Source of the DNA: an uncultured Actinomycetes bacterium
GTDB taxonomy: Bacteria; Actinomycetota; UBA4738; HRBIN12
Length of the DNA: 64,000 nt
Direction: 5' to 3'
Assembly (NCBI GenBank): GCA_963719165.1
Contig: CAVRAV010000001.1
Coordinates: forward strand, 1,829,215 to 1,893,214
A program made the translations under genes and the position numbers. How positions within the stretch are numbered: position 1 is the first letter of the stretch; each line of letters starts with the position of its first letter. Below are positions 31,100-50,183 of this stretch, piece after piece. Under the pieces are notes generated by a model. That model was not told the DNA's origin, ran no database searches, and worked only from the letters and a program-made list of their open reading frames with translations.

Positions 31100-31246
31100 C
31101 TGCGCGCGTGGGAGATGCGCATTGACTGCGCGCGTGGGAGATGCGCATTGACTGCGCGCGTGGGAGATGCGCATTGACTGCGCGCGTGGGAGATGCGCAT
31201 TGACTGCGCGCGTGGGAGATGCGCATTGACTGCGCGCGTGGGAGAT
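31091..31246. repeat. Perfect tandem repeat, 6 x 26 bp (GCGCATTGACTGCGCGCGTGGGAGAT), at the soxB/soxD junction
   Basis: Read directly from the sequence. Each unit carries the soxB 3' end (gcg cat TGA) plus a GGGAGA Shine-Dalgarno and an ATG. A partial 'gcgc' follows the last unit. Confidence 0.95.
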
Positions 31247-31251
31247 GCGCC

Positions 31252-31533: not shown

Positions 31534-34220
31534 CATCCTCGCGCCGCTCCGAGGGCGGCTCGGGGATCGACCGCGGCGTGCCGTTGCGGTTCTCCTTCGA
31601 CGGGTCCACCCGCGAAGGCTACGCGGGCGACACGCTCGCGAGCGCTCTGCTTGCCAACGGCGTGGACGTCGTGTGCTCCTCGCCGATCCTCAACCGCCCG
31701 CGTGGCGTGTTCTCCGCAGGGGTCGAGGAGCCCTGCGCCTTCGTGGAGGTGAGCGCGCCGCGGCTCGAACCAATCGTGGCCGCCCCAGCCGTGGAGCTGG
31801 TCGATGGGCTGAGGGCTGCGGGCCGCCCCGGCGTGGGACGACTCCGGGAGGACGATGCCGGTGCCGCGCCGGCCGATCACCGGAACGTGCATGTGGAGAC
31901 CCTCGTGGTGGGCGCCGGCGTTACCGGCCTTCGCGCCGCGCGCGAGGCCGCGCGCTCCGGTGAGCGCGTGATGCTCGTGGACGAGCGCCACTGGCTCGGA
32001 GGCACGGCGCACAGCGCCGCCGACATCGACGGGGAGGCGGCGGCGGCCTGGGTACAGATCGTGGCCGCCGAGCTCGACGAGGCGCCTGGGGTGCGCGTCT
32101 TGCCGCGCGCCACCGCGCTCGGCGTGTACGACGCGGGCTACGTCGTCGTGGCGCAGAGGAGCCGGGGCGCGGAGCGCATCTGGCACGTGCGTGCCGGGCG
32201 CGTGGTCCTCGCCACCGGGGCCCACGAGCGCCCGATCGCCTTCGCCGACAACGATCGCCCCGGCGTCATGCTCGCATCCGCGGCCGTGCTCTACGCCGAC
32301 CGGTTCGGCGTGCTGCCCGGCGAGCGGGCCGTGGTCTTCACGACGAATCACGGCGGCCACGCGGCGGCCGAGGCCCTCGCCGAGGCCGGCGTCGAGATCG
32401 CGGCGATCCTGGACGCCGGCGAGGGCGGCCCCGCCACCGATCGCGCGCGCGACCGCGGTATCGAGGTGCGCACCCGCTGGGCCGTGGCCTCCACCGCGGG
32501 GGGCGACCGTGTCCGATCGGTCCTCGGGGTCGGGCCCGACGGGGTCGAGGAGGTGTTCGATGCGGACCTCGTCCTCGTGGCCGGTGGGTGGAACCCCGTC
32601 GTCCAGCTGTGGCGCGGCATCGGCGGCGGCGTTCGCTACGACGACGACCTCGCCTGCTTCCTCCCCGACGGCCCGGCACCGCCATGGCTCGAGATCGAGG
32701 GAGCCGCCGCGGGGGTCGGTCTGCCCGCCGTCACGCCGTACTGGTTCACGCCCGGGGCCGACCTCAGCCACCACTTCATCGATCTGCAGAGGGATTCGAC
32801 GGTCGCAGACGTGCTCGACGCGGTCGACATGAACCTGCGGTCGATCGAGCACGTGAAACGGGCGACCTATATCGGCACGGCCATCGATCAGGGACGCACG
32901 AGCGGCGTCCACACGGCCGCCATCGTGAACGAGGCCCTGGGCGCCGGCCCAGGCGCCCAGGGCCCTTCGAACAGCCGGCCGCCGTATACCCCGGTGCCGT
33001 TCGCGGCCCTCGCCGGCCGCGACCGTGGGAACCTGCTCGATCCCGTGCGCTCGACGCCGATCCACGCGTGGCACGTCGAGCACGGCGCCACCTTCGAGAA
33101 CGTCGGCCGATGGAAGCGCCCGCGCTTCTTCCCGGCGGGTCCCTCGGAGGCTCTGGATGCCGCGGTGGACCGGGAGTGCCTCGCCGTGCGGGGCTCCGTG
33201 GGCGTCCTGGACGCATCGACCCTGGGAAAGATCGAGTTGGCGGGTCCCGACGTGGGGACCTTCCTCGACCGGCTCTACACCAACCGGATGTCGAGCCTGG
33301 CGATCGGCGCGATCCGTTACGGCCTCATGCTGGGGATCGACGGCATGGTGATGGACGATGGCGTGGCCATGCGCCTCGCACGGGATCGCTACCTCCTCAG
33401 CACGACGACCGGCGGAGCGGCCCCGGTGATGAGCCACGTCGAGGAATGGCTGCAAACCGAGTGGCCGGACCTTCGTGTCTGGGCCACGAGCGTCACCGAG
33501 CAGTGGGCGACGGTGGCGGTGAACGGACCCCGCGCGCGCGATGTGCTGTCACGGCTCGGCACGGGGATCGCCCTCGACGCCGCGTCGTTCCCGTTCATGA
33601 GCTGGCGCGAGGGTGTCGTCGCTGGCATGCCGGCGCGGATCGCCCGCGTGAGCTTCAGCGGCGAGCTCGCCTACGAGATCTCCGTGCCGGGCTGGTACGG
33701 GCTCGCGATGTGGGAGGCCGTGATGGCCGCTGGGACCGCCTTCGGCATCACGCCCTACGGCACCGAGTCCATGCACGTGCTGCGCGCCGAGAAGGGGTTC
33801 CCGATCGTGGGCCAGGACACCGACGGCACGGTCACGCCCCACGACCTCGGCATGTCGTGGATCGTGAACGAGACCAAGGAGGACTTCATCGGCAAGCGAT
33901 CGCTCTCGCGCCCCGAGGCCAGACGCCTCGATCGCAAGCACCTCGTCGGACTCCTGCCCGTGGAGCCCGACGCCGTGCTGCCCGAAGGCGCCCAGATCGT
34001 GCTGCGCGACACCGGGACGATCCCCATGCCGATGGCGGGGCACGTGACCTCGTCCTACCGCAGCCCCGCGCTCGACCGCTCGATCGCGCTGGCGATGGTG
34101 GCGGGGGGTCGCGACCTGATCGGCACGACGGTGTTCGCCCCCCTCCCCGGGGCGACGATCCCCGCCGTCGTGACCGCTCCGATCTTCTTCGATCCCGAGG
34201 GAACGCGCCGTGACGGCTGA
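31530..34220 (+). CDS. soxA: Sarcosine oxidase alpha subunit
   Basis: The GTG overlaps the soxD stop (GTGA). The ORF is 896 aa. HVETLVVGAGVTGLRAAREAA marks NAD/FAD binding. The C-terminal GcvT-like domain has ...FSGELAYEISVP.... Confidence 0.9.
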   Translation: MTSSRRSEGGSGIDRGVPLRFSFDGSTREGYAGDTLASALLANGVDVVCSSPILNRPRGVFSAGVEEPCAFVEVSAPRLEPIVAAPAVELVDGLRAAGRPGVGRLREDDAGAAPADHRNVHVETLVVGAGVTGLRAAREAARSGERVMLVDERHWLGGTAHSAADIDGEAAAAWVQIVAAELDEAPGVRVLPRATALGVYDAGYVVVAQRSRGAERIWHVRAGRVVLATGAHERPIAFADNDRPGVMLASAAVLYADRFGVLPGERAVVFTTNHGGHAAAEALAEAGVEIAAILDAGEGGPATDRARDRGIEVRTRWAVASTAGGDRVRSVLGVGPDGVEEVFDADLVLVAGGWNPVVQLWRGIGGGVRYDDDLACFLPDGPAPPWLEIEGAAAGVGLPAVTPYWFTPGADLSHHFIDLQRDSTVADVLDAVDMNLRSIEHVKRATYIGTAIDQGRTSGVHTAAIVNEALGAGPGAQGPSNSRPPYTPVPFAALAGRDRGNLLDPVRSTPIHAWHVEHGATFENVGRWKRPRFFPAGPSEALDAAVDRECLAVRGSVGVLDASTLGKIELAGPDVGTFLDRLYTNRMSSLAIGAIRYGLMLGIDGMVMDDGVAMRLARDRYLLSTTTGGAAPVMSHVEEWLQTEWPDLRVWATSVTEQWATVAVNGPRARDVLSRLGTGIALDAASFPFMSWREGVVAGMPARIARVSFSGELAYEISVPGWYGLAMWEAVMAAGTAFGITPYGTESMHVLRAEKGFPIVGQDTDGTVTPHDLGMSWIVNETKEDFIGKRSLSRPEARRLDRKHLVGLLPVEPDAVLPEGAQIVLRDTGTIPMPMAGHVTSSYRSPALDRSIALAMVAGGRDLIGTTVFAPLPGATIPAVVTAPIFFDPEGTRRDG

Positions 34221-34770
34221 GCCGGTCGCGAGGTCTCCGCTCGCGCACCGGTCGCAGCACCTGAGGGCCATCGGGACCGTCGATCGATCCCTATGGGTTG
34301 CGGAGGTGCCGTTCCTCACGCAGGTCGGCCTTCGTGCCGAAGGCGTCCCGACCTCCGGTCTCGCCCTGCCCCTCGAGCCCGACACGGTCCGCATCGACGG
34401 CGAGCGTGCGACGCTGTGGCTGGGTCCCGACGAGTGGCTCGTCACCGGCCCGCCAGGCTCCGCGGGGGCCGTCATCGCGGATCTGCACGCCGGCCTCGGA
34501 GACCGGCCTCACGCCTGCATGGATCTATCGGCGAACCGCGCGGTGCTCGACCTCGGTGGCTCGGTCGCGTTCGAGGTCCTCGACCGCGGATGCTCACTCG
34601 ACCTGCACCCCTCGCGATGGTCCGAGGGCATGTGCGCCCAGACGAACCTCGCCCGGGCGCAGGTGATCCTGCAGCAGGGGCCGGAGGTCACGAGGATCTT
34701 CGTGCGGCCCTCGTTCGCGAGCTACCTCGTGGACTGGCTCGCGTCCGCCGCCGCGGCGGTCGGGGGCTGA
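34210..34770 (+). CDS. soxG: Sarcosine oxidase gamma subunit
   Basis: The GTG start overlaps the soxA stop. The ORF is 186 aa in the canonical soxBDAG order. Confidence 0.75.
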   Translation: MTAEPVARSPLAHRSQHLRAIGTVDRSLWVAEVPFLTQVGLRAEGVPTSGLALPLEPDTVRIDGERATLWLGPDEWLVTGPPGSAGAVIADLHAGLGDRPHACMDLSANRAVLDLGGSVAFEVLDRGCSLDLHPSRWSEGMCAQTNLARAQVILQQGPEVTRIFVRPSFASYLVDWLASAAAAVGG

Positions 34771-36272: not shown

Positions 36273-37814
36273 CTACACGTTCGAGTCCGGGAACGAGGCC
36301 TTCTGACGCTCGATCCACTCGCGCAGCTCCAGGTCGACGGCCTCGTCGATGGCCGGGGGTTCGTAGTCGGCGAGCGTCTTCTTCCATATCGGGTTGGCCC
36401 GGGTGGCGGACTCGAGCGCCCCCTCGAGCTCCCATTGTTCGAAGCTGTTGTTGTCGGCGACGGAGGAGCGGAAGAAGGCCGTCTCGAAGTTCGCGAGCGT
36501 GTGCGCGGTTCCCAGGAAATGCTGACCGGGACCGTTCTCCACGATGGCGTCCACCGCCTGGCCGTTCGGGCTCAGATCGACGCCCTTCGCGAACGCGTGC
36601 ATCATCCCGCACTGGTCGAGGTCCATCACGAACTTCTCGTACCCCATGGTGAGCCCCCCCTCGAGCCATCCGGCCGCATGCAGCACGAAGTTGACCCCGC
36701 CCAGCACGGTCGGCTGCAGCGTGTTGGCGGACTCGTACGCCGCCTGGGCATCCGGGACCTTGGAGGCGGTCAGGGAGCCGCCGCTGCGGAACGGAACGCC
36801 CAGACGGCGCGCGCATGCCGCGAGGGAGTAGAGCACGAGCGCCGGCTCGGGCGTGCCGAACGTCGGCGCGCCGGACTGCATGGACATCGAGGATGCGAAG
36901 GACCCGAACACGACCGGCGCGCCCGCCCGCACGAGCTGGACGTAGGTCATGCCCGCGAGCGCCTCGGCGAGCGTCTGCGCGGCCGCCCCCGCCACCGTGG
37001 CCGGGCTCATGGCTCCCGCCAGGATGAACGGCGTGATGATCACCGCCTGGTTCGCCTCCGCGTAGGCCTTGGCCGCTCCGAGCATGCTCGAGTCCCACAC
37101 GAGCGGCGAGTTCGCGTTGATGAGGCTGAGGAGGTACGTGCGCTCCTCCAGCGCGTCCTTCCCGAACAAGATGCGGGCCATCTCGACCGAGTCCTGCGCC
37201 CGCTGGGGGTGGGTCACGGACCCCATGAACGGCTTGTCCGAATAGCGCATGTGCGCGTAGACCATGTCGTAATGGCGCTTGTTCACGGGCAGGTCGACCG
37301 GTTCGCAGACGGTGCCGCCCGAGTGGTGCAGGAACGGCGAGCTGTACGCGAGCTTCACGAAGTTCCGGAAGTCCTCGATCGTCCCGTAGCGTCGGCCGCC
37401 GTCGAGGTCCCGCACGAACGGCGATCCGTAGGCCGGCGCGAACACGGTCGCGTCCCCGCCGATCTGCACGTCGTGCGCGGGGTTGCGGGCGTGCTGGACG
37501 AACACCGAGGGGGCGCTGGCTCGGATCACCTCCCGGCACATCCCCCGCGGGAACCGCACGCGCTCCCCTTCGACGCCGGCGCCCGCGGCTTTCAGCAACG
37601 CGAGGGCATCGGGGGCGCCCTTGAAGTCGATCCCGACCCGTTCCAAGATCGTTTCGGCGTTGTCCTCGATCACGCTCAATCCTTCTTCGGAAAGGACCTC
37701 GAAGGGCGCGAGCGTGCGCGTGATGTAGGGGACGGCCTCGACGGCGTGCGCCGCCCGCACGGCCGCCCGCCCCGCGCGCCCGCCGGTGCGCCGCGCTCTG
37801 GGAGCATCGCTCAT
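36273..37814 (-). CDS. MttB-superfamily methyltransferase without pyrrolysine (glycine betaine/quaternary amine:corrinoid methyltransferase, MtgB-like)
   Basis: ATG at 37814 after GAGAGGAG. The ATGA overlaps the upstream gene. The N-terminus RRTGGRAGRAAVRAAH is typical of MttB. The ORF is 513 aa with no in-frame TAG. Confidence 0.8.
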   Translation of the reverse strand: MSDAPRARRTGGRAGRAAVRAAHAVEAVPYITRTLAPFEVLSEEGLSVIEDNAETILERVGIDFKGAPDALALLKAAGAGVEGERVRFPRGMCREVIRASAPSVFVQHARNPAHDVQIGGDATVFAPAYGSPFVRDLDGGRRYGTIEDFRNFVKLAYSSPFLHHSGGTVCEPVDLPVNKRHYDMVYAHMRYSDKPFMGSVTHPQRAQDSVEMARILFGKDALEERTYLLSLINANSPLVWDSSMLGAAKAYAEANQAVIITPFILAGAMSPATVAGAAAQTLAEALAGMTYVQLVRAGAPVVFGSFASSMSMQSGAPTFGTPEPALVLYSLAACARRLGVPFRSGGSLTASKVPDAQAAYESANTLQPTVLGGVNFVLHAAGWLEGGLTMGYEKFVMDLDQCGMMHAFAKGVDLSPNGQAVDAIVENGPGQHFLGTAHTLANFETAFFRSSVADNNSFEQWELEGALESATRANPIWKKTLADYEPPAIDEAVDLELREWIERQKASFPDSNV

Positions 37815-39850
37815 GTGGGACTCCTCTCGATGGTGGGACCGGCGGTACGTGAACGCCGTCGGCGACGCATCCGGTCCTCCGACCCGGAACCGGATCCGGC
37901 GCGGCGGGCGGGTAGCCGTACGACTTCAGCGAGGCGCGGATAGGGGTCGGCGGCGTGGGGGATCCCCATCGCGCCGACGAAATGCTCCTGGAACCGCGGT
38001 TCCACCGCCGTCTCGACCTTCTCCACGCGACGCACCACGGTTTCGATCTCGTCGCGCGCGGCGCGGTTGAGCAGCGCGATCCGCGCGCCCGTGCCGGCGG
38101 CGTTTCCGGCGCTCGTGACTGATGCCGGGTCGCAGTCGGGCACGAGACCGAGCACCATGGCGTGCACGGGATCGATGTGCGCGCCGAACGCTCCGGCGAG
38201 CCGGATCCGATCGACGGCGTCGATCCCCAGGTGATCCATCAACAGCTTGCACCCGGCCCACAGCGCGGCCTTGGCGAGCTGGATAGCACGAACGTCCATC
38301 TGGCTGAGCCGGAGCGGCACCCGCCCTTCGCTCAGGACATAGGCGAACGTGCGTCGGTCGGAGACGATCCGCGGGGAGCGCTCCGCCAGCGCGCCGTCGA
38401 TCACGCCGTCCTCGGTGATGACCCCGGCGAGGAACAGCTCGGCCACGAGCTCGATGATCCCCGAGCCGCAGATGCCGGTGACGGCGCTCGGTTCGAAGCC
38501 CGGCTCGTCGGACCAAGCGTCGTTGCCGATGACCTTGTAGCGGGGCTCGAGCGTCGCTGCGTCGACGCGGACGCGTTCGACCGCACCGGGCGCCGCCCGC
38601 TGCCCGCCGGTGACCTGCGCGCCTTCGAAGGCGGGCCCGGTGGGGCTCGAGGCCGCGAGCAAGCGATCGCGGTTGCCGAGCACGATCTCCGCGTTCGTCC
38701 CGACATCCACGATGAGGTTGACCTGTTCCTGTGCGTGAGGCGCCTCGGACAGGATGACCCCCGCGGTATCGGCGCCCACGTGACCGGCGATGCAGGGCAA
38801 GAGGTAGACGCGAGCGCCGGGATTCACACCGCGCAGGTCAAGGTCGAGCGCGCGCCGGTGCACCGCGCCGTCGGTCGCGAGCGCGAACGGGGCCCCGCCC
38901 AGCTCCGTCGGGTCGAGCCCGAGGAGGAGGTGGTGCATGATCGGATTGCCTACCACCGTGAGATCCAGCACGTCGGAGGGCGCCTCGGCCGCCTGCGAGC
39001 ACAGTTCCCCGACGAGATCCTCGAGGCACCCGCGGATCGCGCGCGTGAGCTCGGCCTCGGACCCCGGATTCATCATCACGTAGGACACGCGGCTCATGAG
39101 GTCCTCGCCGAAGCGGATCTGCGGGTTCATCGAACCTGCCGATGCCAGGACGTCGCCGCTCGCGAGGTCGCACAGATGCCCGGCCACGGTGGTGGAACCG
39201 ACGTCGAAGGCGATCCCGAGCGCCCGGCCGTGGTACCCCGGCCACACGGCGACGATCGATCGACCGTCGTGCACGGCCACGGTGGCCGTCCAGTCGCCGG
39301 CGCGCAGCGTGCGCTGCAGCGCCGCGAGGACGTGGGCGTCGCACGCCAGCCCCGCGAGTCGCCAGTCGCGTTCGAGGGCCTCCTCCAGACGCTGGAGGTC
39401 GCCCGAGGGATCACGGAGGTCGGGTTCGCGCACCTCCACGTAGTGCAGGCGGATCGTGGGATCCACTTCGATCGGGTGGGCGTCCGCCTCCTTGCGGATC
39501 ACCTGGCGATGGATCTGGCTCTCCGGCGGCACGTCGATCACGAGGTCGCCCAGGATGCGTGCGTGGCACCCGAGCCGCCGATCGTGCCCCAGGCCATCGC
39601 GGTCCCGGTAGCGCTGCTCCGGCTCGCTGAACGCCGTGAGGTGCGCGGCTGTCGAATCGATGGCGAGCTTGGCGAACGCGCCCTCGCTCACCACCACCTG
39701 GCAACGACCGCAGATCCCCCGGCCCCCGCATACGGAGTCCAGGTCGACCCCGAGGGTGCGCGCCGCGTCGAGCAGGTCGGTGCCCTGGGCGAATCGCCCG
39801 CGCAATCCCGACGGGGTGAACACGACGAGCGGCTCGCGAGGAGGATTCAC
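37811..39850 (-). CDS. Reductive activase of corrinoid enzymes (RACo/RamA-like; ASKHA ATPase with an N-terminal plant-type 2Fe-2S ferredoxin)
   Basis: The GTG at 39850 overlaps the mtgA-like stop (GTGA). The ferredoxin cysteines are CGGRGICGRCQV. The body is ASKHA (AFDVGSTTVAGHL..., DVGTNAEIVLG). Confidence 0.8.
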   Translation of the reverse strand: MNPPREPLVVFTPSGLRGRFAQGTDLLDAARTLGVDLDSVCGGRGICGRCQVVVSEGAFAKLAIDSTAAHLTAFSEPEQRYRDRDGLGHDRRLGCHARILGDLVIDVPPESQIHRQVIRKEADAHPIEVDPTIRLHYVEVREPDLRDPSGDLQRLEEALERDWRLAGLACDAHVLAALQRTLRAGDWTATVAVHDGRSIVAVWPGYHGRALGIAFDVGSTTVAGHLCDLASGDVLASAGSMNPQIRFGEDLMSRVSYVMMNPGSEAELTRAIRGCLEDLVGELCSQAAEAPSDVLDLTVVGNPIMHHLLLGLDPTELGGAPFALATDGAVHRRALDLDLRGVNPGARVYLLPCIAGHVGADTAGVILSEAPHAQEQVNLIVDVGTNAEIVLGNRDRLLAASSPTGPAFEGAQVTGGQRAAPGAVERVRVDAATLEPRYKVIGNDAWSDEPGFEPSAVTGICGSGIIELVAELFLAGVITEDGVIDGALAERSPRIVSDRRTFAYVLSEGRVPLRLSQMDVRAIQLAKAALWAGCKLLMDHLGIDAVDRIRLAGAFGAHIDPVHAMVLGLVPDCDPASVTSAGNAAGTGARIALLNRAARDEIETVVRRVEKVETAVEPRFQEHFVGAMGIPHAADPYPRLAEVVRLPARRAGSGSGSEDRMRRRRRSRTAGPTIERSPT

Positions 39851-40785
39851 GGCGCGGGCGGCGCTTCCGCGCCGGCGGCCGCCGCCGCTCGCCTGCGACC
39901 CTCGCGGCCGCCTCTGCGCCCGGCGTTCGGGCCACCCGTGGGCTGCTCGCGATAGCGACCGATCCAGGCGCCGCAGTCCCTGTCCACGCCCATCAGCACG
40001 TCGGCCGCCATCACGGCCTGCCGGACCTCCTCGTGCAAGGGGCTGGTGATGGCGCTCGTGAGGCCGTTCGCGATGGCCATGGCGAGGAACGCGCCGTTGA
40101 TCCCGTTGCGGTTGGGCAGGCCGAACGACACGTTGGACGCCCCACACGTGGTGTTGACCCCCAGCTCGTCATGCAGCCGGCGGACCAAGGAGAACACCTG
40201 GCGCCCCGCGCCGCCTAAGGCCCCGATCGGCATCACCAGGGGATCCACGACGATGTCGGCCGGCCCGATGCCGTGATCCGCGGCCGCGCGCACGATCTTC
40301 TCGGCCACGGCGAAGCGCACGTCGGGGTCCTCGCTGATCCCGGTCTCGTCGTTCGTGATCGCCACGACCGCCGCCCCGTGCTTGGCCACCAGCGGCAGCA
40401 CCTGCTCGAGGCGCTCGTCCTCTCCGGTGACGGAGTTCACGAGCGGCTTGCCCACGTAGGCGTTCAGCCCGGACTCCAGCGCCGCCACGATGGACGAGTC
40501 GATCGACAGGGGGAGGTCGGTCAGCGACTGCACCAACCGGACGGTCGCGGACAAGATCGCGGGCTCGTCCGCCAGCGGGATCCCGGCGTTCACGTCGAGC
40601 ATGTGCGCGCCCGCGGCCACCTGCGCGTGCGTGTCGGCCACCACCGTGGAGTAGTCGCCGGCCTTCATCTCCTCCGCGAGACGCTGGCGGCCGGTGGGGT
40701 TGATGCGCTCTCCGATGATCACGAAGGGCCGACCCGGGCCGATCATCACCTCGCGGGTGGCCGAGCCCAACACGGTGTCGGTCAT
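39847..40785 (-). CDS. Methyl-tetrahydrofolate:corrinoid methyltransferase (pterin-binding, MtgA/AcsE/MtrH-like)
   Basis: ATG at 40785, with a GGAG SD. IIGERINPTGRQRLAEEMKAGDY...LDVNAGIP...NSVTGE...CGASNVSFGLPNR is the pterin-binding DHPS-like TIM barrel. Confidence 0.8.
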   Translation of the reverse strand: MTDTVLGSATREVMIGPGRPFVIIGERINPTGRQRLAEEMKAGDYSTVVADTHAQVAAGAHMLDVNAGIPLADEPAILSATVRLVQSLTDLPLSIDSSIVAALESGLNAYVGKPLVNSVTGEDERLEQVLPLVAKHGAAVVAITNDETGISEDPDVRFAVAEKIVRAAADHGIGPADIVVDPLVMPIGALGGAGRQVFSLVRRLHDELGVNTTCGASNVSFGLPNRNGINGAFLAMAIANGLTSAITSPLHEEVRQAVMAADVLMGVDRDCGAWIGRYREQPTGGPNAGRRGGREGRRRAAAAAGAEAPPAP

Positions 40786-41090
40786 ACCGGCGCTCCGCCT
40801 TCGATGCCGCCCGAGCGGATGGCGGCGCGAAGGACGTCTTCCGTCCAAGCCTCCTCCAGCGCCTCGGCGGCCGCCGACACCTCGGCATCGAGGTCGTCGC
40901 CGCACGCGCGCTTGTCCATACGCATCTGCTCGGTGTAGTCGTCCGACCCGATCAGGCCCGCCACCATCGCCGCGGCATCCACGGCCTCTTGGAACCGCTC
41001 CGGCAGGAGGGCGCGGGCACTCGTGCCCTCGCCGCGCGCCACGATCTGCATCGGGATGTCGCGCCAACGGATGACGGTCAGGTCGGCCAC
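40782..41090 (-). CDS. Small conserved hypothetical protein (102 aa) embedded in the corrinoid methyltransferase operon
   Basis: GTG at 41090 with a strong GAGAGGAG 5 nt upstream. The stop overlaps the mtgA-like start (ATGA). The product is VADLTVIRWRDIPMQIVARGEG.... It may be related to the small 'virulence factor' domain proteins seen next to MttB clusters. That is from memory, unverified. Confidence 0.55.
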   Translation of the reverse strand: MADLTVIRWRDIPMQIVARGEGTSARALLPERFQEAVDAAAMVAGLIGSDDYTEQMRMDKRACGDDLDAEVSAAAEALEEAWTEDVLRAAIRSGGIEGGAPV

Positions 41091-41109
41091 GGGGTCTCCT
41101 CTCGGTGGC

Positions 41110-41802
41110 TCAGGACGCCATCGCCCGTTTGGCGATCACGAGCGCTTGCGCGGTCTCGGCCGCCACGGCGGCGTCGCGACAGTAGGCATCGGCGCCCACG
41201 GCCTTGCCGAACTCTTCGTTCAACGGCGCTCCTCCGACGAGCACGATGTAGCGCTCGCGCATGCCCCGCGCCGCGAGCTCGTCGATCACGACCTTCATGT
41301 AAGGCATGGTGGTGGTGAGGAGCGCGCTCATCCCCAGGATGTCGGGTTCGTGCTCCTCCAGCGCGGCGAGGTAGTTCTCGACGGGGTTGTTGATGCCCAG
41401 GTCGATGACTTCGAACCCCGCCCCTTCCAGCATCATCGCCACGAGGTTCTTCCCGATGTCGTGGATGTCGCCCTTCACCGTCCCGATCACGACCTTGCCG
41501 ATCGGCTCTGCGCCGGTCTCGGCCAGCAGGGGACGCAGGATCGCCATACCGGACTTCATGGCGTTCGCCGCGAGGAGCACCTCGGGAACGAACAGGATCC
41601 CGTCGCGAAAATCGATGCCCACGATCCGCATGCCCTCGACCAGCGCGTCGTTCAACACGCGGTCGGCCGCCCACCCCCGGCCCAACAGGAGGTTCGTGCC
41701 CTCGACGATCTCCTCGGCGAGACCGTCGTAGAGGTCGTCGTGCATCTGGCTCACGAGCTCGTCGTCCGGCAGGGACGAGAGGTCGAGTTCCTGGTCGCTC
41801 AT
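41110..41802 (-). CDS. Cobalamin (B12)-binding corrinoid protein (MtgC/MttC-like)
   Basis: ATG at 41802 after AGGAG. The B12 lower-ligand motif DxHxxG is GDIHDIGKN, followed by the Rossmann-like B12-binding domain. Confidence 0.85.
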   Translation of the reverse strand: MSDQELDLSSLPDDELVSQMHDDLYDGLAEEIVEGTNLLLGRGWAADRVLNDALVEGMRIVGIDFRDGILFVPEVLLAANAMKSGMAILRPLLAETGAEPIGKVVIGTVKGDIHDIGKNLVAMMLEGAGFEVIDLGINNPVENYLAALEEHEPDILGMSALLTTTMPYMKVVIDELAARGMRERYIVLVGGAPLNEEFGKAVGADAYCRDAAVAAETAQALVIAKRAMAS

Positions 41803-41811
41803 GATCGGCTC

Positions 41812-44289
41812 CTATGCCTTGAGTCGTTCGCCCTTGGGGTCCCACAACGGTTCGTTGCCGACGGTCGCGGCGTGCCGCACGCCGAAGTACTCGACCTCCA
41901 CGGCGGTCCCGGCCACGGCCGCCTCGGCGGGGAGGTAGCCGTACGCGATGCCCCTGCCCACCGCGTAGCCGTAGGCCGCCGACGTCACGTAACCCGCGAC
42001 ACGCCCTTCGTGCCAGATCGGCTCGTAGCCCATCACCACGACGCGCGGGTCGTCGAGGGTGATGCACGACAGTCGCCGCGGGGGACCACCGGCATCGCGG
42101 ATCGCCTCGAGCGCGGCTCGCCCCTGGAACTCCTTGTCCCAGTGAACGGCGAAGCCGAGGCCCGCCTCCAGCGGATCGTGCTCGGTGTTGATGTCCTGGC
42201 CCCAGAGCCGGTATCCCTTCTCCAGGCGCAGGGAATCGAACGCACCGCTGCCGGCCGCCACCATGCCGTGCTCGATGCCCGCGCGCCAGAGCAGGTCCCA
42301 CACCCGGTCCCCCATCGCGAACTGGCCGTAGAGCTCCCATCCGAGTTCCCCGGCGTAGCTGATGCGCTGCGCCCACACGGGGCTCACCTCCCCGACGTTC
42401 AGGTACCGGGCGGTGAGGTACGGGAAGGCGTCGTTGGCAACGTCGGCGTCGGTCACCCGCTCGAGGATGTCTCGCGCCCGTGGTCCCCACAGCCCCAACG
42501 CGAACAGCGAGCCTGTGCGCTCGCTGATCGTGACCCGTTCGTCGGCGCGGATCTGCGACCGCAACCACGCGACGTCGTGCGGACCGCTACCGCCGCCGGT
42601 CACGAGGCGGAACAGCCGCTCGTCCTTGCGGATCACGGTGAGATCCAGCCGGATGCCGCCCTTCGGCGTGAGCGCGGCCGTGTAGACGATCGAACCCACC
42701 GGTCGATCGATGCGGTTGGCGAAGATCCGCTCCAGGTAGGAGAGCGCATCCGGGCCCGACACGTCGAACTTCGCGAACGGCGTGATGTCGAACAGCCCGG
42801 CGTGCGAGCGCGTGGCGAGATGCTCGGCGCCCACCTCGGGCGACCACCCGCGCGCCGCCCACCCCGACCGGCGAGCCCATTCATGAGCGACGCCGCCGAC
42901 GAGCGCCCGATTCTCGCGGAACCAGCGCGGGCGCTCCCAGCCGGCGCTCGTGAAGAACTCGGCGCCCAACCCCAGGTGCCGAGCGAAGAACGGCGTGAGC
43001 CGCAGGTCGCGTGGTCTCGCCGGCTGTTGCAGCGGGTGGATGATGTCGTACACCTCGCGGTACTGCTGCTTCCCCCGCTCCACGACGAAGGGCGCCGACG
43101 TCTGGAACGGGTAGAACCGGTTGGCGTCGGCCTCGGCGAGGTCGTAGGAGGGCTCGCCCTCGACCATCCACTCGGCGACCTGCCGCGCCATGCCGGCCGC
43201 GTGGGTCACCCAGACGGCCTCGCACACCCACACGCCGCGCGTGGACGCGCTCTCGCCCACCACGGAACCACCGTCAGGGGTGAAGCTGAACATCCCGTTC
43301 AGCGACCGGGCCGGATCGCTCGGGCGCATCGTGCCGCGCAACGCCGGGAACAGCCGTCCGGCCTCGGCCTCGCACACGTCGAAGTCGTCGGGGGTCCAGG
43401 GCATCAACGACGGCATCGCCCCCTCGCCTGTCCGCCGGATCTCCTCCTGCGGCGTGACGATGGGTTCGTGGCGATAGTTCCCCACACCGAAGTGGTCGCC
43501 GCGCTGGCGGAAGTACGAAGAGCCGTCCTGATGCCGCACCACGGGCTGCTGCATCCAGGTGTCCCCAACGAGCGCCTCGAGGCCGGGGACCGGATCCGTC
43601 CACACGAGCTGGTGCTGCACGGCCACGAGCGGGATCGGCACGCCGGCGAGGGCACCGACGGTAGGCCCCCAGAGCCCCGCGCAGATCAAGACGCGGTCGC
43701 ATTCGATCCGCCCCCGGTCGGTCTCGACGGCGCGCACGCGCCCGTCCCGCCGGTCGAAGCCCGTCACGCTCACGCCGCCCTCGAACGCCACTCCGCGAGA
43801 CTCCGCATCGCGCGCCAGCCGCGTCACGATCTGCACCGACTTGGCAGCGCCGTCGCTCGGGACCCAGAGCGCCGCCAGGATCGATCCCGGGTCGAGCAGC
43901 GGGCTCTTTTGAGCGGCCTCCTCGGGCTCCAGGAGCCCGGATCCATCGATCCCGTAGGAACGGGCGAACCCCTGTCTACGCTTGAGCTCTTCGACCCGCT
44001 CGGGCGTGGTCGCGACCTCGAGACTCCCCGTCCCGTACCAGCATCGCTCGCCGTCGAGGTCGATGTCCGCGTAGAGGCCCACCGAGTCGCCGGCGAGGCG
44101 GCACATCGTTCGCGACGGGTTGATCTGGAACACGATCCCCGGGGCGTGCGATGTCGAGCCGCCGGTCGCGAACAGCGGCCCCTGATCGATCACGAGGACG
44201 TCGCTCGCGCCGAGGTTCGCGAGGTGATAGGCGGCGCTCACGCCCACGATCCCGGCGCCGACGATCACGGTCTGGGCTCGGTCCCGCAT
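41812..44289 (-). CDS. Dimethylglycine/sarcosine dehydrogenase-family flavoenzyme (second copy), first gene of the corrinoid operon
   Basis: ATG at 44289 after GAGGAG. TVIVGAGIVGVSAAYHL marks the FAD site. The C-terminal GcvT domain has ...YAGELGWELY.... The ORF is 825 aa. Confidence 0.85.
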   Translation of the reverse strand: MRDRAQTVIVGAGIVGVSAAYHLANLGASDVLVIDQGPLFATGGSTSHAPGIVFQINPSRTMCRLAGDSVGLYADIDLDGERCWYGTGSLEVATTPERVEELKRRQGFARSYGIDGSGLLEPEEAAQKSPLLDPGSILAALWVPSDGAAKSVQIVTRLARDAESRGVAFEGGVSVTGFDRRDGRVRAVETDRGRIECDRVLICAGLWGPTVGALAGVPIPLVAVQHQLVWTDPVPGLEALVGDTWMQQPVVRHQDGSSYFRQRGDHFGVGNYRHEPIVTPQEEIRRTGEGAMPSLMPWTPDDFDVCEAEAGRLFPALRGTMRPSDPARSLNGMFSFTPDGGSVVGESASTRGVWVCEAVWVTHAAGMARQVAEWMVEGEPSYDLAEADANRFYPFQTSAPFVVERGKQQYREVYDIIHPLQQPARPRDLRLTPFFARHLGLGAEFFTSAGWERPRWFRENRALVGGVAHEWARRSGWAARGWSPEVGAEHLATRSHAGLFDITPFAKFDVSGPDALSYLERIFANRIDRPVGSIVYTAALTPKGGIRLDLTVIRKDERLFRLVTGGGSGPHDVAWLRSQIRADERVTISERTGSLFALGLWGPRARDILERVTDADVANDAFPYLTARYLNVGEVSPVWAQRISYAGELGWELYGQFAMGDRVWDLLWRAGIEHGMVAAGSGAFDSLRLEKGYRLWGQDINTEHDPLEAGLGFAVHWDKEFQGRAALEAIRDAGGPPRRLSCITLDDPRVVVMGYEPIWHEGRVAGYVTSAAYGYAVGRGIAYGYLPAEAAVAGTAVEVEYFGVRHAATVGNEPLWDPKGERLKA

Positions 44290-44395
44290 GTCGCTCCTCA
44301 GCGCGGCTCCTCGCCGCGACCCCGCGATGTTCTCACCCACCGTTGCGGCAGCAAGGCTCCAGTTGCGCGCACAGCAACACGACAGCCCCCGCCGT

Positions 44396-45844
44396 TCAGC
44401 CCAGGTTGAGCACCACCGTCTTCAGCTCGGTGAGCCGCTCCATCGAGAAGCGCCCGCCGACCCGGCCGACGCCGCTGCGAGAGCCCGCGCCCCCGCCGAA
44501 CGGCAGGTGCGGCTCCCAGTAGTTCGTGCCCTCGTTCACGTTCACCCACCCGGCGCGCACCGACTCCGCGTAACGCAGTCCACGCTGCAGGTCCGCCGTG
44601 AAGATCGCGGTGAGCAGGCCGTAGGGCGACGCGTTGACGAGCGCGATCGCCTCGTCCTCGTGGCGGATGGCCGTGATGGGCACCACGGGCCCGAACGTCT
44701 CCTCGCGTGCCACCTCCATCTCCTGCGTGACGCCTTCGAGGACGGTTGCCTCGAAGAACAGGTCGCTGCCGTGTTGGGGGGCTCGCTCGCCGCCCGCGAG
44801 CACGGTGGCGCCCCGGTCGAGGGCGTCCCGCACGTGACGTTGGGTCTTGTCCGCGGTGGCTTCGTTGTTCAGCGGCCCCATCGTCGTGGCGTCGTCGAAC
44901 GGATCGCCGAGATGGATCCGCTCCGCCACCGCCGCGACAAGCTTGCCCACGTATGCGTCCTTCACGTCCGCATGCACGAGGATGCGCTCCCCGGCGGTAC
45001 AGCTCTGTCCCGCGTTGAGGTAGGCCGCCACCAGCGTCGCATCGACCGCCGCGTCGAGGTCGGCGTCCTCCATGATCACGAGAGGGCCGTTGCCTCCCAT
45101 CTCGAGCAAGAGGTCCTTGCCGGCCGCGCGCGCGGCCACCGTCAGCCCGGTGGCGATCGAACCGATGAACCCGACCGCCTGCGTGCCGGGGTTCGCTGCG
45201 AGCTCGTCGCCCACCACCGGGCCGGCGCCCGTCACCATGTTCACCACCCCGGGCGGCACCTCGGCCGCCTCGAGACAGCGGATGAGCTCGACCGCGCAGA
45301 GGGACGTGCTGGGGGCGGGCGCCCACGCCACGGTGTTCCCGTACGCGATGGCCGGTGCGAGGATCTCCCCCGGCATCGTGTAGGGCCAGTTCCACGGGCT
45401 GATCACAGAGACGACGCCACGCGGGACCCGCTGCAGGAGCACACGTTTGGCGGGGTCCACGGACGGCGGCAGCACGCCCTCCATGCGCACCGCGTCGGCC
45501 GCAGCCATCTCGAAGTACGCGATCAGTTCCTCGACCTCGTCGCGCGCCTCGGCGGCCAACGGCTTCCCCTGGTCCGACGAGAGCACGCGCGCCATCGCCT
45601 CTCGGCGCTCGTCGATGGCCGCCGCCACACGCCGCAAGAGGGCCGCCCGGGCGAACGGGCCGGCGGCCGACCACGCGGGGAAGGCCACGCGCGCGGCCTC
45701 GATCGCCCGCCGGGCATCGCCGCGCGTCCCGGCCGCGACGGAGCCGATCACGGCGCCCGTTGACGGGCTCGTGGACTCGAACGTCGCGCCGTCCTCGGCC
45801 GGGCCCCAGGCGCCGCCGATGTACAGGCCGATCTCGTGCCCCAT
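44396..45844 (-). CDS. Aldehyde dehydrogenase (candidate betaine-aldehyde dehydrogenase)
   Basis: MGHEIGLYIGGAW...VISPWNWP...EMGGNGP...NAGQSCTAGERI shows the catalytic Cys and Glu motifs. Its position between the ProVWX-like genes and the GB operon suggests a BetB role. Confidence 0.75.
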   Translation of the reverse strand: MGHEIGLYIGGAWGPAEDGATFESTSPSTGAVIGSVAAGTRGDARRAIEAARVAFPAWSAAGPFARAALLRRVAAAIDERREAMARVLSSDQGKPLAAEARDEVEELIAYFEMAAADAVRMEGVLPPSVDPAKRVLLQRVPRGVVSVISPWNWPYTMPGEILAPAIAYGNTVAWAPAPSTSLCAVELIRCLEAAEVPPGVVNMVTGAGPVVGDELAANPGTQAVGFIGSIATGLTVAARAAGKDLLLEMGGNGPLVIMEDADLDAAVDATLVAAYLNAGQSCTAGERILVHADVKDAYVGKLVAAVAERIHLGDPFDDATTMGPLNNEATADKTQRHVRDALDRGATVLAGGERAPQHGSDLFFEATVLEGVTQEMEVAREETFGPVVPITAIRHEDEAIALVNASPYGLLTAIFTADLQRGLRYAESVRAGWVNVNEGTNYWEPHLPFGGGAGSRSGVGRVGGRFSMERLTELKTVVLNLG

Positions 45845-45920
45845 GGCTTCGCGGCTCCCTCCCGGCGCACGCGGGGCGGCCGAAGGCCGCCCCGACCGTG
45901 CGTCATGCGCGCCGGACGAG

Positions 45921-46934
45921 CTACGCCGGCTGCGCCGCCATCCCGGCGTCCACCCACGGCTGCCAGACCTGCGGGTTCTGGTCGATCCAGTCCTGAGCGG
46001 CCTTCGCTGGGTCATCCCCCTTGCTGATGCCCAGGCCGATGATGTTCTGGTCGTCGTTCGTGTAGGTCATCGCGCTCAAGAAGGCGAAGGCGGCCGGCGC
46101 CTTCGTCTGGAGATCCTGGTTGAAGGCCTTGTAGAGGTCGTCCTGCGGGTAGGCGCACGCGTACTTGGTGGCGTCATCCGCCGCCGCCTGCTCGCAGGCG
46201 GGCGTGACGTCGGGCAGCTTCATCATGGTCAGGTCGTACTTCTGCTGGGCCCAGTGGGGCGTCCAGAAGTACATCAGGATGGGGCCCTTCTTCTGGTACG
46301 CGGCGTCGAGGGCGGACAGCTCCGCGTCCTCCGAACCGCCGTACACGACCTTCATGTTGAGACCGAGGTTGTCGGCGATGGGCTGGTCGAAGGTCACGAA
46401 GCTCGGATCGCCGTCGAGGATCTGACCCTGGCCCGGCGTCTCGCTGGTCTGGAACAGGGTCTCGTTGCCCTTCAGGCCCTCCCAGGTCTTGAGCTCGGGA
46501 TGGGTGTCCAGCATGTAGGTCGGGAACCACCAGCCGATCTGACCGGTCACCCCGAGCAGTCCCCCGTCCACCACGCCGTTGCCGGATTCGATGTACTTCT
46601 TGTAGTCCTCCGCGTGCCCGGACGGCCACACCTCGAGGGTGGCGTCGATCTGCCCCTTCGCGATCGCGGGGAACTGCGCGTACTCGGAGATCTTCTTGCT
46701 GTCCACCGCGTAGCCGAGCTTGTCCTGCAGCAGCTGCTCCGCCACGGCGACGTTGGCGGCCGACCCGACCCACGGGTTGATCGCGAACGTGATCGTCGTA
46801 CCGGAGTTGTCGGGCGCGGAACTCCCCGACGCGCTCCCCGACGCGCTCGAGTTGTCTTTCACGTCGCTGCAGGCGCTCATGAGCAACACGATCGCCACCG
46901 CGAACGCACCGATCGCCCAACCTCGCTTGGTCAT
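45921..46934 (-). CDS. Glycine betaine/proline betaine ABC transporter substrate-binding lipoprotein (ProX/OpuAC-like)
   Basis: ATG at 46934 after GAGGAG. MTKRGWAIGAFAVAIVLLMSAC is a lipobox, followed by an OpuAC-family domain. Confidence 0.8.
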   Translation of the reverse strand: MTKRGWAIGAFAVAIVLLMSACSDVKDNSSASGSASGSSAPDNSGTTITFAINPWVGSAANVAVAEQLLQDKLGYAVDSKKISEYAQFPAIAKGQIDATLEVWPSGHAEDYKKYIESGNGVVDGGLLGVTGQIGWWFPTYMLDTHPELKTWEGLKGNETLFQTSETPGQGQILDGDPSFVTFDQPIADNLGLNMKVVYGGSEDAELSALDAAYQKKGPILMYFWTPHWAQQKYDLTMMKLPDVTPACEQAAADDATKYACAYPQDDLYKAFNQDLQTKAPAAFAFLSAMTYTNDDQNIIGLGISKGDDPAKAAQDWIDQNPQVWQPWVDAGMAAQPA

Positions 46935-46945
46935 CCCTGCTCCTC

Positions 46946-49018
46946 TCATCGCGAACCTTCCCCTTCTCCTACGTCGTCGGCTGCCCCTCGGGACGGGGCC
47001 ATCACCGAACGCTCCTGATGCCCCGACGCCCTTCCGGTGGCCGAAGCCTGGCCGAGCGCCTGGGTGATCCGGTCGATCACGATGGCCATCAACAAGATCG
47101 CGACGCCGGCGACGACGCCCAGACCCGGATCGTGCGACAGCCCGTTGACGATCAGGTAACCGAGGCCCGCGCCGCCGACGAGACCCGCGATGATCACGAC
47201 GGAGAAGACCATGATGACGGTCTGGTTCACGCCGAGCAGGATCGAGGGGCGGGCGAGCGGGAGCTGCACCTTCCACAACGTCTGCGCCGGGGTCGCGCCG
47301 AAGGCGTCGGACGCCTCGACGATGTCCTTGGGGACCTCACGGATGCCCAGGTCCGTGAGCCGTACGCCTGGCGGCAGCGCATAGACGAGGGCCGCGATCA
47401 CGCCGGGGACCCTCCCCACCCCGAACAGCGCGACGGCCGGCACTAGGTAGACGAACTGCGGCATCGTCTGCATCGTGTCGAGGATGGGCTTGAGGACCGC
47501 GTGGACGCGGTCGCTCGTGCCCGACCAGATCCCGAGCGGGATGGCGAGCACCACCGAGGCGACGACCGCCACCAGGACCTGGCTGAGCGTGTTCATGGCG
47601 GGGTCCCACATCCCGATGACACCGACGCCGGCCAGCAGGAGGAACGCGAGCAGCGGGAGCGTCCATCGCCTCGAGACCGCCCAGCCGATCAGCGCCGCGA
47701 AACCGCAGACCATCCACCAGGGCAAGCCGGTGAGCAGCTTGAAGAGGGGGTCGAGGGCATAGCGGATCGTCGCACCCGTGAGGGCGGTGGTGGCTCCCCC
47801 GAACGTTCGGAGCACCCAGGACTCGGCCTGGTTCACGGGCGCCGAGATCGAGACCGCGAGCGATGACGGGAAGTCTTGCTGACGGAGCACCTGGCGCCCG
47901 ATGAAGATCGCCGCGATCACCGCCACCACGGCCACGACCAGGATCATGCGTCGCGACACGACGACGCCCAGGATGCGCGAACCGCTCGACCCGCGCCGGA
48001 CCCGATCGCGCAGGCTCCACGAGAAGGTCACGCGATCGAAGACGATGGCCATGGCCACGATGGCGAGCCCGGCCGCGAGCGCCTCGCCCACGTTCAAGGT
48101 GCTGAGGGCATCGAGCACCGACTGACCCAGCCCCCCCGCGCCGATGGTGGCCGCGAGGACCACGATCCCCAGCGCCATCATGATGCTCTGGTTCACGCCG
48201 AGCATCACGGACGGCTTCGCGAGCGGGAGCTGGACCTTGCGAAGCATCTGTCGCGAGGTCGCGCCGAAGGAACGGCCCACCTCGAGCGAACCTTCCGACA
48301 CCTGCTTGATCCCGAGGCTAGTGAGCCGGATCGCGGGCGGGATCGCGAAGATGACCGTCGCCGCGATCGAGGGCGGAGCCCCGATGCCGAGCAGCAGCGC
48401 GAAGGGCACGAAGTAGGAGAACGCCGGGATGGTTTGCATCGCGTCGAGGATTGGGCGCAGGGCTCGCTCCACCCGCGGATGACGCCCGGCCCAGATCCCC
48501 ATCGGAAGCCCCACCGCGACCGAGATCGCGACCGAGATCGCGATCAGGGCCAGGGTCTCCAGGCTGGCCTCCCAGAATCCGAGCACGCCGAAGGACAGGA
48601 ATCCGACGGCGGCGAGGACGCCCATGCGCCAGCCCGCGAGCACGCCGGCGACGGCGGCCGCGAGCGTCACCACCCCGACCCAGGTCAGGCGGGAGAGGAA
48701 CAGGACGAGGTTGTCGTACAGGGACTGGAACGCCGTCTGCATCGGCGTGAGCACGTGTACGAAGAAGGCGTTCGTGCGCTGGTTGTCGATGACCCAGTTC
48801 ACGAAATCGTTGAACGGTTTCGCGGCGTCGACCGTCAGGCTCTTCGGGAAGCCGGGCGTGAGCTGAAGGCCGACGATGACGGCGACGACGACACCCGCGA
48901 TCCACACCAAGCGTCGGCGCCAGCGAGGCCGGGCACGGAAGACGAGGTCGCTCCGTTCCGCGGCCTCCTCGCGCTCGAGCTCGCCCAGGCCGGAGGACGG
49001 CGGTGCTTCAACCGTCAC
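46946..49018 (-). CDS. Glycine betaine ABC transporter permease with two fused TMDs (ProW/OpuAB-like)
   Basis: 690 aa. Two repeated permease modules each carry the EAA-like loop (...LGATSRQMLRKVQLPLAKP... and ...FGATPAQTLWKVQLPLARP...). The GTGA overlaps the proV stop. Confidence 0.8.
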   Translation of the reverse strand: MTVEAPPSSGLGELEREEAAERSDLVFRARPRWRRRLVWIAGVVVAVIVGLQLTPGFPKSLTVDAAKPFNDFVNWVIDNQRTNAFFVHVLTPMQTAFQSLYDNLVLFLSRLTWVGVVTLAAAVAGVLAGWRMGVLAAVGFLSFGVLGFWEASLETLALIAISVAISVAVGLPMGIWAGRHPRVERALRPILDAMQTIPAFSYFVPFALLLGIGAPPSIAATVIFAIPPAIRLTSLGIKQVSEGSLEVGRSFGATSRQMLRKVQLPLAKPSVMLGVNQSIMMALGIVVLAATIGAGGLGQSVLDALSTLNVGEALAAGLAIVAMAIVFDRVTFSWSLRDRVRRGSSGSRILGVVVSRRMILVVAVVAVIAAIFIGRQVLRQQDFPSSLAVSISAPVNQAESWVLRTFGGATTALTGATIRYALDPLFKLLTGLPWWMVCGFAALIGWAVSRRWTLPLLAFLLLAGVGVIGMWDPAMNTLSQVLVAVVASVVLAIPLGIWSGTSDRVHAVLKPILDTMQTMPQFVYLVPAVALFGVGRVPGVIAALVYALPPGVRLTDLGIREVPKDIVEASDAFGATPAQTLWKVQLPLARPSILLGVNQTVIMVFSVVIIAGLVGGAGLGYLIVNGLSHDPGLGVVAGVAILLMAIVIDRITQALGQASATGRASGHQERSVMAPSRGAADDVGEGEGSR

Positions 49019-50043: not shown

Positions 50044-50183
50044 GTCCAACCAGGAACCCCTCCTCCCGGTGACTCCTCGACCGTCGGATAGTGGTCCGGG
50101 GGGGTCGCGCGCGCAAGCCAGGGGTTGCGCCGTCGGCAACGGCTCGCGCGCGCAGCGCCCCACCGTGGTGCAGAATCCGCCGC

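Follow-up and report, generated by a model that had tools for sequence, protein, structure and literature searches.

What is a protein of only 102 amino acids doing in the middle of an operon for corrinoid-dependent methyl transfer, and why do its relatives carry a name that belongs to virulence? The gene in question occupies positions 40782-41090 on the minus strand of a 64,000-nucleotide stretch of DNA from an uncultured Actinomycetes bacterium (assembly GCA_963719165.1, contig CAVRAV010000001.1, positions 1,829,215 to 1,893,214), the whole of which we call the window. Its product belongs to the Pfam family PF13769 ("Virulence_fact"), and its neighbors encode a corrinoid protein, a methyl-tetrahydrofolate (methyl-THF):corrinoid methyltransferase, an ATP-dependent reductive activase of the RACo/RamA kind, and an MttB-family methyltransferase. 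We propose, with a probability that we would put at about 0.5, that the protein needs no cofactor of its own and acts as an adaptor in the module of RACo and DUF1638, by which Co(II) on the corrinoid protein MtgC is reactivated.

It took until 2025 for aerobic, B12-dependent demethylation of glycine betaine (MtgBCD) to be recognized as a major route by which osmolytes turn over in the ocean. The published lists of its parts have RamA and DUF1638 in them and leave PF13769 out. No new kind of system is at issue here. What is added to the pathway is a component that has been overlooked and that can easily be tested. The family can now be tied to the reactivation module of aerobic MtgBCD and of the split methionine synthase (split MetH) because it holds its operon position across phyla, is recurrently fused to RACo, and has a confidently predicted fold for which Foldseek finds no counterpart in the PDB.

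The Gene

Is it a gene at all? The open reading frame (ORF) runs from a GTG start through 102 codons to a TGA and translates into exactly the peptide quoted in a first-pass annotation made from the sequence alone, with the strand now established as (-). Nineteen nucleotides (nt) separate the stop of the corrinoid gene (41110-41802) from the GTG, and among them stands a Shine-Dalgarno-like GAGAGGAG (41096-41103, (-)), 5 nt (ACCCC) ahead of the start. That annotation had counted the site among the strongest in the window. The arrangement GAGAGGAG-5nt-GTG is as it described. The same octamer also precedes the MttB start (37821-37828). With 5 copies in the window, overall at or below chance expectation, it is a strong feature of the operon and not one peculiar to the PF13769 gene.

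At its other end the ORF reads GTATGA, and the ATG of the pterin-binding methyltransferase gene lies at 40785, so that the two genes share the ATGA stop/start overlap (40782-40785, (-)) noted earlier. Further couplings of 4 nt follow downstream, GTGA between the methyltransferase and RACo genes and ATGA between RACo and MttB. The end of the PF13769 gene coincides exactly with its overlap onto the next start codon, and the window protein is without the acidic, Gly/Pro-rich C-terminal tail of 10-25 residues that is seen in the close homologues P0004, P0012, and P0024. A longer N-terminus for the window protein is ruled out; the differences in length among homologues are C-terminal tails.

The base composition of the gene (G+C of 0.76/0.50/0.88 at codon positions 1, 2, and 3) resembles that of its neighbors in a window of 70% G+C. 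By the Nei-Gojobori method, the ratio of nonsynonymous to synonymous change (dN/dS) comes to 0.15 for L001 and 0.21 for L002, the two loci with the closest orthologues found; in more distant comparisons, the synonymous sites are saturated. The first-pass annotation had named in advance what would count against it, namely, absence from homologous operons or a noncoding dN/dS signature, and what we find is conservation in 80 loci and a ratio of 0.15-0.21. In other words, 40782-41090 is a real gene under purifying selection, and synteny and dN/dS together bear out the suspicion that the corrinoid methyltransferase operon has in it a genuine and conserved accessory gene, coupled to its neighbor in translation and placed, as domain matches confirm, between the genes for the corrinoid protein and the MtgA-like enzyme.

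Nor is it rare. A single-sequence search returned 464 homologues, the best 120 of which are all at least 70% identical and all carry PF13769; an exhaustive HMMER search over 1.84 billion representatives gave 599 clusters at 50% identity; a profile search gave at least 7,986 clusters at 90% identity; and when a single genome was scanned for each species, at least 590 species had a relative. The closest relatives are metagenome-assembled genomes (MAGs) of uncultured Actinomycetes. Most of the recovered carriers are MAGs of uncultured bacteria from marine, soil, and sponge samples, and rhizobial isolates make up another part.

The Family

The search against PF13769 that had been suggested for this protein gives it the domain that could not be recognized by eye: 55.4 bits against a cutoff of 25 (E 8e-15), over positions 3-79 of a profile of 81. 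It is the sole match in a Pfam scan of the ORF, which finds no KH, HD, or S1 domain. A similarity to the NCBIfam model TIGR03086 (19.9 bits; cutoff 83) was discarded as an artefact of Ala-rich helices.

The conserved positions of the family are W9-R-D-I-P-x-Q15, which forms the β1-β2 hairpin, then L29, R32, F33, A36, D38, A40, A41, Y52, (W56) R57, C63-G-x-D-L-x-x-E70, L87, and G95. The window protein has W9, R10, D11, I12, P13, Q15, R32, F33, D38, A41, Y52, C63, G64, and G95, and its clade departs from otherwise conserved positions in A14M, W56M, and R58M. In a closer set of 141 sequences, the family residues are invariant or at least 90% conserved, with Cys63 invariant. In a diverse set of 43, only P13, A41, Y52, and G95 are invariant; W9, R10, D11, Q15, R32, F33, and D38 are at least 90% conserved, and C63/G64 are not conserved. 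The AlphaFold2 (AF2) model of the window protein is confident (predicted local distance difference test, pLDDT, 95.9; predicted template modeling score, pTM, 0.85) and shows an α/β fold in the order β-β-β-α-α-β-α-α. Foldseek with the predicted fold found no match in the PDB, and a profile sequence search of the PDB found none below E 0.5. One relative, P0144 (214 aa), contains two tandem PF13769 domains (160 bits over two stretches), and the domain may, to judge from this arrangement, act as a dimer.

What, then, of the name? Relatives in NCBI and JGI records have inherited "virulence factor," "cvfA/B/C family virulence factor," or simply "hypothetical protein," and these labels are all that speaks for a virulence protein unrelated to one-carbon metabolism. 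CvfA of Staphylococcus aureus is RNase Y, with KH and HD domains, and CvfB is an RNA-binding protein with S1 domains; the ORF has none of these. No pathogen appears among the recovered carriers, a supporting paper for the name did not turn up in our literature search, and the genomic context, which is that of betaine metabolism and B12-dependent methyl transfer, effectively refutes the label. We suggest that it be replaced, given that it spreads to thousands of environmental genomes. A search of the literature for PF13769, IPR025989, and SPO1861 (a Ruegeria protein to which we return below) found no study of the protein or the family. Essentially, the window protein is an ordinary member of a large family that is catalogued, misnamed, and unstudied.

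The protein itself offers few chemical handles. It is acidic (10.9 kDa, pI 4.3), with one Cys and no His, and thus has no Cys/His cluster and no obvious site for a metal or a cluster. It is not a plausible DNA binder, and a composition of this kind would fit an adaptor better than a redox or DNA-binding protein.

Neighbors and Fusions

If the protein says little for itself, its company says a good deal more. We compared 80 loci from Actinomycetota, Chloroflexota, Alpha- and Gammaproteobacteria, and Acidobacteriota, four phyla in all, and the order of genes is nearly fixed: corrinoid protein, DUF1638, PF13769, (MetV-like, methylene-THF reductase), pterin methyltransferase, RACo, and MttB. The MetV-like and methylene-THF reductase (MTHFR) genes in parentheses belong to Proteobacteria, where they come after PF13769 and before the pterin methyltransferase, and the same overall order is found on a plasmid record from the betaproteobacterium Azoarcus. 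Among the 49 loci that are well flanked (at least 2.5 kb upstream and at least 5.5 kb downstream), 47 have the corrinoid gene, 46 RACo, 46 the pterin methyltransferase, 43 DUF1638, and 39 MttB. In about 80% of loci, DUF1638 stands immediately upstream of PF13769, and in two from Chloroflexia and Rhodospirillales (L034 and L058) these two genes are the only pair left together. The first-pass annotation had placed similar small proteins next to MttB-family genes; the actual place is between the corrinoid/DUF1638 genes and the pterin methyltransferase, and PF13769 persists in cassettes from which MttB, and indeed both methyltransferases, are missing.

The most direct evidence on a partner is covalent. 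In the isolate Terrarubrum flagellatum, whose replicon is complete and annotated in RefSeq, there is a protein of 760 aa in which PF13769 is followed by a [2Fe-2S] ferredoxin domain and by the linker, middle, and ASKHA domains of RACo. At least 21 further clusters of full-length PF13769::RACo fusions (755-790 aa) are 59-71% identical to it, and the fusions are a maintained lineage and not an artefact of assembly. The AF2 model of the Terrarubrum protein (pLDDT 86, pTM 0.71) keeps the PF13769 fold and the order of its secondary structure, and from the end of this fold it takes only about 7 residues to reach the ferredoxin domain's first strand. In three genomes of this lineage, the cassette consists of a corrinoid gene, DUF1638, and the PF13769::RACo gene, with no MttB or pterin methyltransferase gene within 9 kb. 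That is, PF13769 travels with the corrinoid protein and the genes for its reactivation. One further fusion, P0207, joins DUF1638 to PF13769. In the window, the PF13769 protein and RACo are separate proteins; a physical association is suggested by these fusions in relatives and by the distances described below.

Other candidate fusions did not survive inspection. The apparent fusion of PF13769 to a pterin-binding domain in P0246 is a frameshift artefact, and in P0196, P0260, and P0268 only the first half of the domain was matched, which is probably an artefact of the same kind.

A third line of evidence comes from pairwise distances, compared in an exploratory way in 32 loci where all six genes are intact, with the caution that shared phylogeny confounds such comparisons. 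The distances of PF13769 correlate most closely with those of RACo (Pearson r 0.91; partial r, controlling for the mean of the other families, 0.54) and the corrinoid protein (0.88; 0.51), then with those of the pterin methyltransferase (0.83; 0.17), DUF1638 (0.80; 0.23), and MttB (0.67; 0.19).

Could the partner lie instead on the THF side? PF13769 might bind MtgD or MetV/MetF and help its partner to dock on the corrinoid protein, or it might channel methyl-THF, and have no part in reactivation. The coupling through ATGA to the pterin methyltransferase gene in the window would be natural on that account, as would the coupling to a MetV-like gene in Sinorhizobium meliloti and Azoarcus. In Rhizobiaceae, where the cluster is split, PF13769 heads an operon of MetV, MetF, MtgD, a small hypothetical gene, and RACo, and MtgC-DUF1638 lies apart from it by 1.6-3.5 kb. 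In Pseudorhodobacter, the conserved neighbors are limited to a MetF2-like gene and MtgD, in a unit of three genes whose middle member, of 312 aa, occupies the MetF2 position; RamA, MtgC, and DUF1638 are located away from this unit in Rhodobacterales. We nevertheless consider a THF-side role unlikely: the cassette of the fusion lineage has neither a pterin methyltransferase nor an MTHFR gene nearby, no genuine fusion of PF13769 to a pterin-binding domain was found once P0246 had been set aside, and the distances of the pterin methyltransferase show only a low partial correlation (0.17) with those of PF13769.

A second proposal is that the protein is a chaperone or assembly factor for MtgC, acting in B12 loading, in the handling of the cap domain, or in shielding Co(I) from O2, and doing so independently of RACo. 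The PF13769 gene directly follows the corrinoid gene in the window clade, its distances follow those of the corrinoid protein closely (r 0.88, partial 0.51), and the taxa recovered belong mostly to aerobic lineages. Against this, DUF1638 stands between the corrinoid and PF13769 genes in most genomes, the protein has no recognizable cofactor-binding motif (again, one Cys and no His), and a fusion to a B12-binding domain is absent from the 150 representatives listed and the 120 matches of the fusion search. We judge such a chaperone to be quite unlikely. A corrinoid chaperone or an adaptor for the methyltransferases was the function first suggested for this gene, and the strongest evidence now points elsewhere: to the fusions with RACo and DUF1638 and to distances that track RACo and the corrinoid protein over the pterin methyltransferase and MttB.

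Finally, a small acidic protein that comes first in the THF-module operon of Rhizobiaceae, and that stands alone in some loci (L016, L020, L030, and L074), could be imagined as a regulator of the operon's expression or activity, such as an anti-activator or a sensor of methyl-donor supply. Its pI of 4.3 and its lack of a DNA-binding motif are poor credentials for the task; moreover, its gene overlaps the next by 4 nt within the operon in the manner of a structural subunit, covalent fusions join it to enzymes, and regulators of the IclR and GlxA types are already encoded near such clusters. A regulatory role is, we think, very improbable.

A Proposed Function

How might an adaptor contribute to the repair of an oxidized cobalamin? 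RACo and RamA bind the inactive Co(II) corrinoid protein, and ATP drives the uphill step in which the [2Fe-2S] domain at their N-terminus gives an electron to the cobalt. We picture PF13769 as a small acidic α/β subunit, a dedicated accessory of the aerobic-type system formed by MttB/MtgB, MtgC, MtgD, and RACo. That system takes a methyl group from glycine betaine, leaving dimethylglycine, and some bacteria also use it as a split methionine synthase. Once cob(I)alamin on MtgC has been oxidized to the inactive Co(II) form, RACo spends ATP to drive an electron from its [2Fe-2S] domain, at the N-terminus, to the metal; PF13769, alone or with DUF1638, would bind beside that mobile [2Fe-2S] domain as a docking or positioning adaptor, bringing RACo to Co(II)-MtgC or to its electron donor. 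Binding to RACo and to MtgC, the adaptor role itself, and any link to oxygen tolerance are all things that we infer. We do so because of the synteny, the RACo fusions, the links to DUF1638, the minimal cassette, the model of the fusion, the distances, the published genetics, and the composition of the protein.

It is useful to say what the protein is not. It shares an operon with RACo/RamA, makes up the N-terminal part of RACo proteins in no fewer than 22 clusters, and shows its closest covariation with RACo, but it has neither an ASKHA nor an Fe-S domain and hence cannot itself be the activase. An analogy, and no more than that, may be drawn with the reactivation domain of MetH (PF02965), an extra module for the repair of Co(II) cobalamin on a cap and Rossmann B12 domain of the MetH kind. 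The MetH domain binds S-adenosylmethionine and carries out a reductive methylation with flavodoxin, whereas the PF13769 systems use the ATP-driven RACo, and there is no relation of sequence or fold between the two.

The published genetics concern the neighbors. In Phaeobacter, the split MetH requires both DUF1638 and a RamA-like protein, and the two have near-identical phyletic profiles and co-occur across Alphaproteobacteria (Price et al. 2018, PMC5764234). In Ruegeria pomeroyi, the first demethylation of glycine betaine was described in 2025 as the work of MtgBCD, and glycine betaine induces both RamA and DUF1638 there (Mausz et al. 2025, PMC12478193); MtgC and MtgD are common to this system and to the split methionine synthase of Phaeobacter (PMC12478193; PMC5764234). 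Like PF13769, DUF1638 (PF07796) is conserved and stands beside MtgC, and it is genetically tied to RamA-like reactivation. It differs in belonging to an unrelated family, in being twice the size and Cys-rich, and in having a fitness phenotype in Phaeobacter. The PF13769 protein is mentioned neither in these two papers (PMC12478193, PMC5764234) nor in a 2025 Phaeobacter preprint.

It may be present in the data. SPO1861 of R. pomeroyi, an "uncharacterized protein," adjoins metF2 (SPO1862) and mtgD (SPO1863) (PMC12478193), and it is probably a PF13769 homologue by synteny with Pseudorhodobacter, which has the order PF13769, a gene in the MetF2 position, and MtgD. Its peptides number 0 in every replicate on succinate plus ammonium and reach as many as 7 on N-osmolytes, with 6-7 in most replicates on carnitine, glycine betaine, and succinate plus glycine betaine and 2-3 on choline (Dataset S1, PMC12478193). 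The difference is significant on carnitine and on succinate plus glycine betaine (PMC12478193).

The window operon resembles the aerobic MtgBCD(E)/split-MetH system (Mausz et al. 2025) in having MttB-family, MtgC-like, MtgD-like, and RamA-like genes, and it resembles it in setting as well, with BetA, an aldehyde dehydrogenase, an OpuAC transporter, a dimethylglycine-dehydrogenase-like gene, and soxBDAG. It is unlike that system in being actinobacterial, fully clustered, and without DUF1638, and the published MtgBCD(E) model has no PF13769 component.

Several points weigh against our reading and deserve to be set out together. The literature that we searched holds no interaction, genetic, or biochemical data on any member of PF13769. 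The RACo/RamA homologues of strict anaerobes such as acetogens and methanogens work without any known PF13769 partner, and PF13769 therefore cannot be part of the core chemistry. The window clade has no DUF1638 in its operon, and the window has none in its 64 kb; the gene is also missing at the PF13769 position in the window-clade relatives L001, L002, L006, L018, and L019, as well as in L040, L043, and L051, and a strict partnership with DUF1638 is therefore not universal. About 10% of loci (L016, L020, L030, L074, and L060) have PF13769 and none of these neighbors, the first four being short gammaproteobacterial contigs. The arrangements in Rhodobacterales and Rhizobiaceae fit a role on the THF side equally well. 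Mirror-tree correlations, confounded as they are by shared phylogeny, make a weak argument.

The PF13769 carriers recovered belong mostly to aerobic lineages, and none among the top-ranked matches listed comes from strict anaerobes such as acetogens or methanogens; this distribution, as far as those matches go, suggests an adaptation to frequent oxidative inactivation. A bolder version of the adaptor proposal is tempting, and we offer it tentatively, believing it more doubtful than not: RACo, DUF1638, and PF13769 would together make up the apparatus that keeps cobalamin reduced in aerobes. PF13769, with a new fold that would attach to RACo's [2Fe-2S] arm, would be its obligatory third member, and without it neither glycine betaine demethylation nor split MetH would work in abundant marine and soil lineages. 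Whatever the fate of that idea, a gene for about 100 aa that is found in the genomes of at least 590 species, almost always in this operon, and repeatedly fused to RACo is a concrete target.

The Operon and Its Surroundings

All of the genes of the operon lie on the minus strand. The corrinoid protein (41110-41802, (-)) has a B12-binding cap and a B12-binding domain (PF02607, PF02310), with its best NCBIfam similarity to MtgC models, under their cutoffs. The pterin-binding methyl-THF:corrinoid methyltransferase (39847-40785, (-)) is MtgD/MtgA-like (PF00809; NF005719 at 338 bits, cutoff 259). The RACo/RamA-like ATP-dependent corrinoid reductive activase (37811-39850, (-)) starts with GTG and has the [2Fe-2S], linker, middle, and ASKHA domains (PF00111, PF17650, PF17651, PF14574). 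Last comes the MtgB-like, nonpyrrolysine member of the MttB superfamily (36273-37814, (-)), an ORF of 513 aa with a full-length match to PF06253 (748 bits) and no internal stop, which falls below the cutoff of the equivalog for pyrrolysine-type MttB. This enzyme is presumed to be a glycine betaine:corrinoid methyltransferase, glycine betaine being suggested as its substrate by neighboring genes only (BetA, the aldehyde dehydrogenase, OpuAC, the dimethylglycine-dehydrogenase-like gene, and sox). Inside its gene, from about codon 348, lies a match to the Rfam family PYLIS_3 (36674-36773, (-); 43.3 bits against a gathering threshold of 38), which looks like coding-sequence homology to pyrrolysine-type mttB rather than a working PYLIS element, because the ORF has no in-frame UAG and the protein is a nonpyrrolysine member of the family.

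A tblastn search found no DUF1638 gene in the operon (36273-44340) or anywhere else in the window, and either it is encoded elsewhere in the genome or it is dispensable in the window clade. The MetV and MTHFR genes that stand next to PF13769 in Proteobacteria are absent from the window as well.

Directly upstream, in the same operon, is a flavoprotein gene like those for dimethylglycine/sarcosine dehydrogenases (41812-44340, (-); DAO and GCV_T domains), and beyond it domain matches identify an ATP-binding cassette (ABC) ATPase, a fused permease, an OpuAC betaine-binding protein, and an aldehyde dehydrogenase resembling betaine-aldehyde dehydrogenase (44396-50163, (-); starts approximate). A divergent choline dehydrogenase gene (50091-51887, (+)) scores 829.7 bits against the 732.1-bit cutoff of the BetA equivalog. 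Farther away, again by domain matches, are a second gene of the dimethylglycine/sarcosine-dehydrogenase kind (14927-17392, (-)) and a soxB-D-A-G cluster for a heterotetrameric sarcosine oxidase (29576-34770, (+)), the latter with an IclR regulator (28907-29701). Taken together, the window appears to encode a nearly complete pathway from choline to glycine, an aerobic and cobalamin-dependent route that would run through betaine aldehyde, glycine betaine, dimethylglycine, and sarcosine.

There may be a second route. A gene for the α-subunit of a Rieske ring-hydroxylating oxygenase (18678-20303, (-)) shows partial similarity to GbcA (166 bits against a cutoff of 670) and is adjoined by one for a flavin amine oxidase (19810-21684, (+)), and the region may provide an O2-dependent path of N-demethylation.

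Some minor observations concern loci other than the window. The minimal cassette of the fusion lineage (L084:1-12260, L085, L086, and L087) adjoins an ABC transporter of the oligopeptide type, and beside it are also Ldh_2, MR_MLE (enolase superfamily), ornithine-cyclodeaminase-like, and phosphonate-binding-like genes, surroundings that are reminiscent of catabolic clusters for proline or hydroxyproline betaine. In S. meliloti, a hypothetical protein of 112 aa without a Pfam match is encoded between the pterin methyltransferase and RACo (L081:15058-15396, (+)), and it may be another unrecognized small component. The 312-aa gene of Pseudorhodobacter (L082:8317-9255, (+)), which occupies the position of the "MetF-like" SPO1862 of Ruegeria and has no Pfam match at E<1e-3, may represent a divergent MetF2 family missed by current models.

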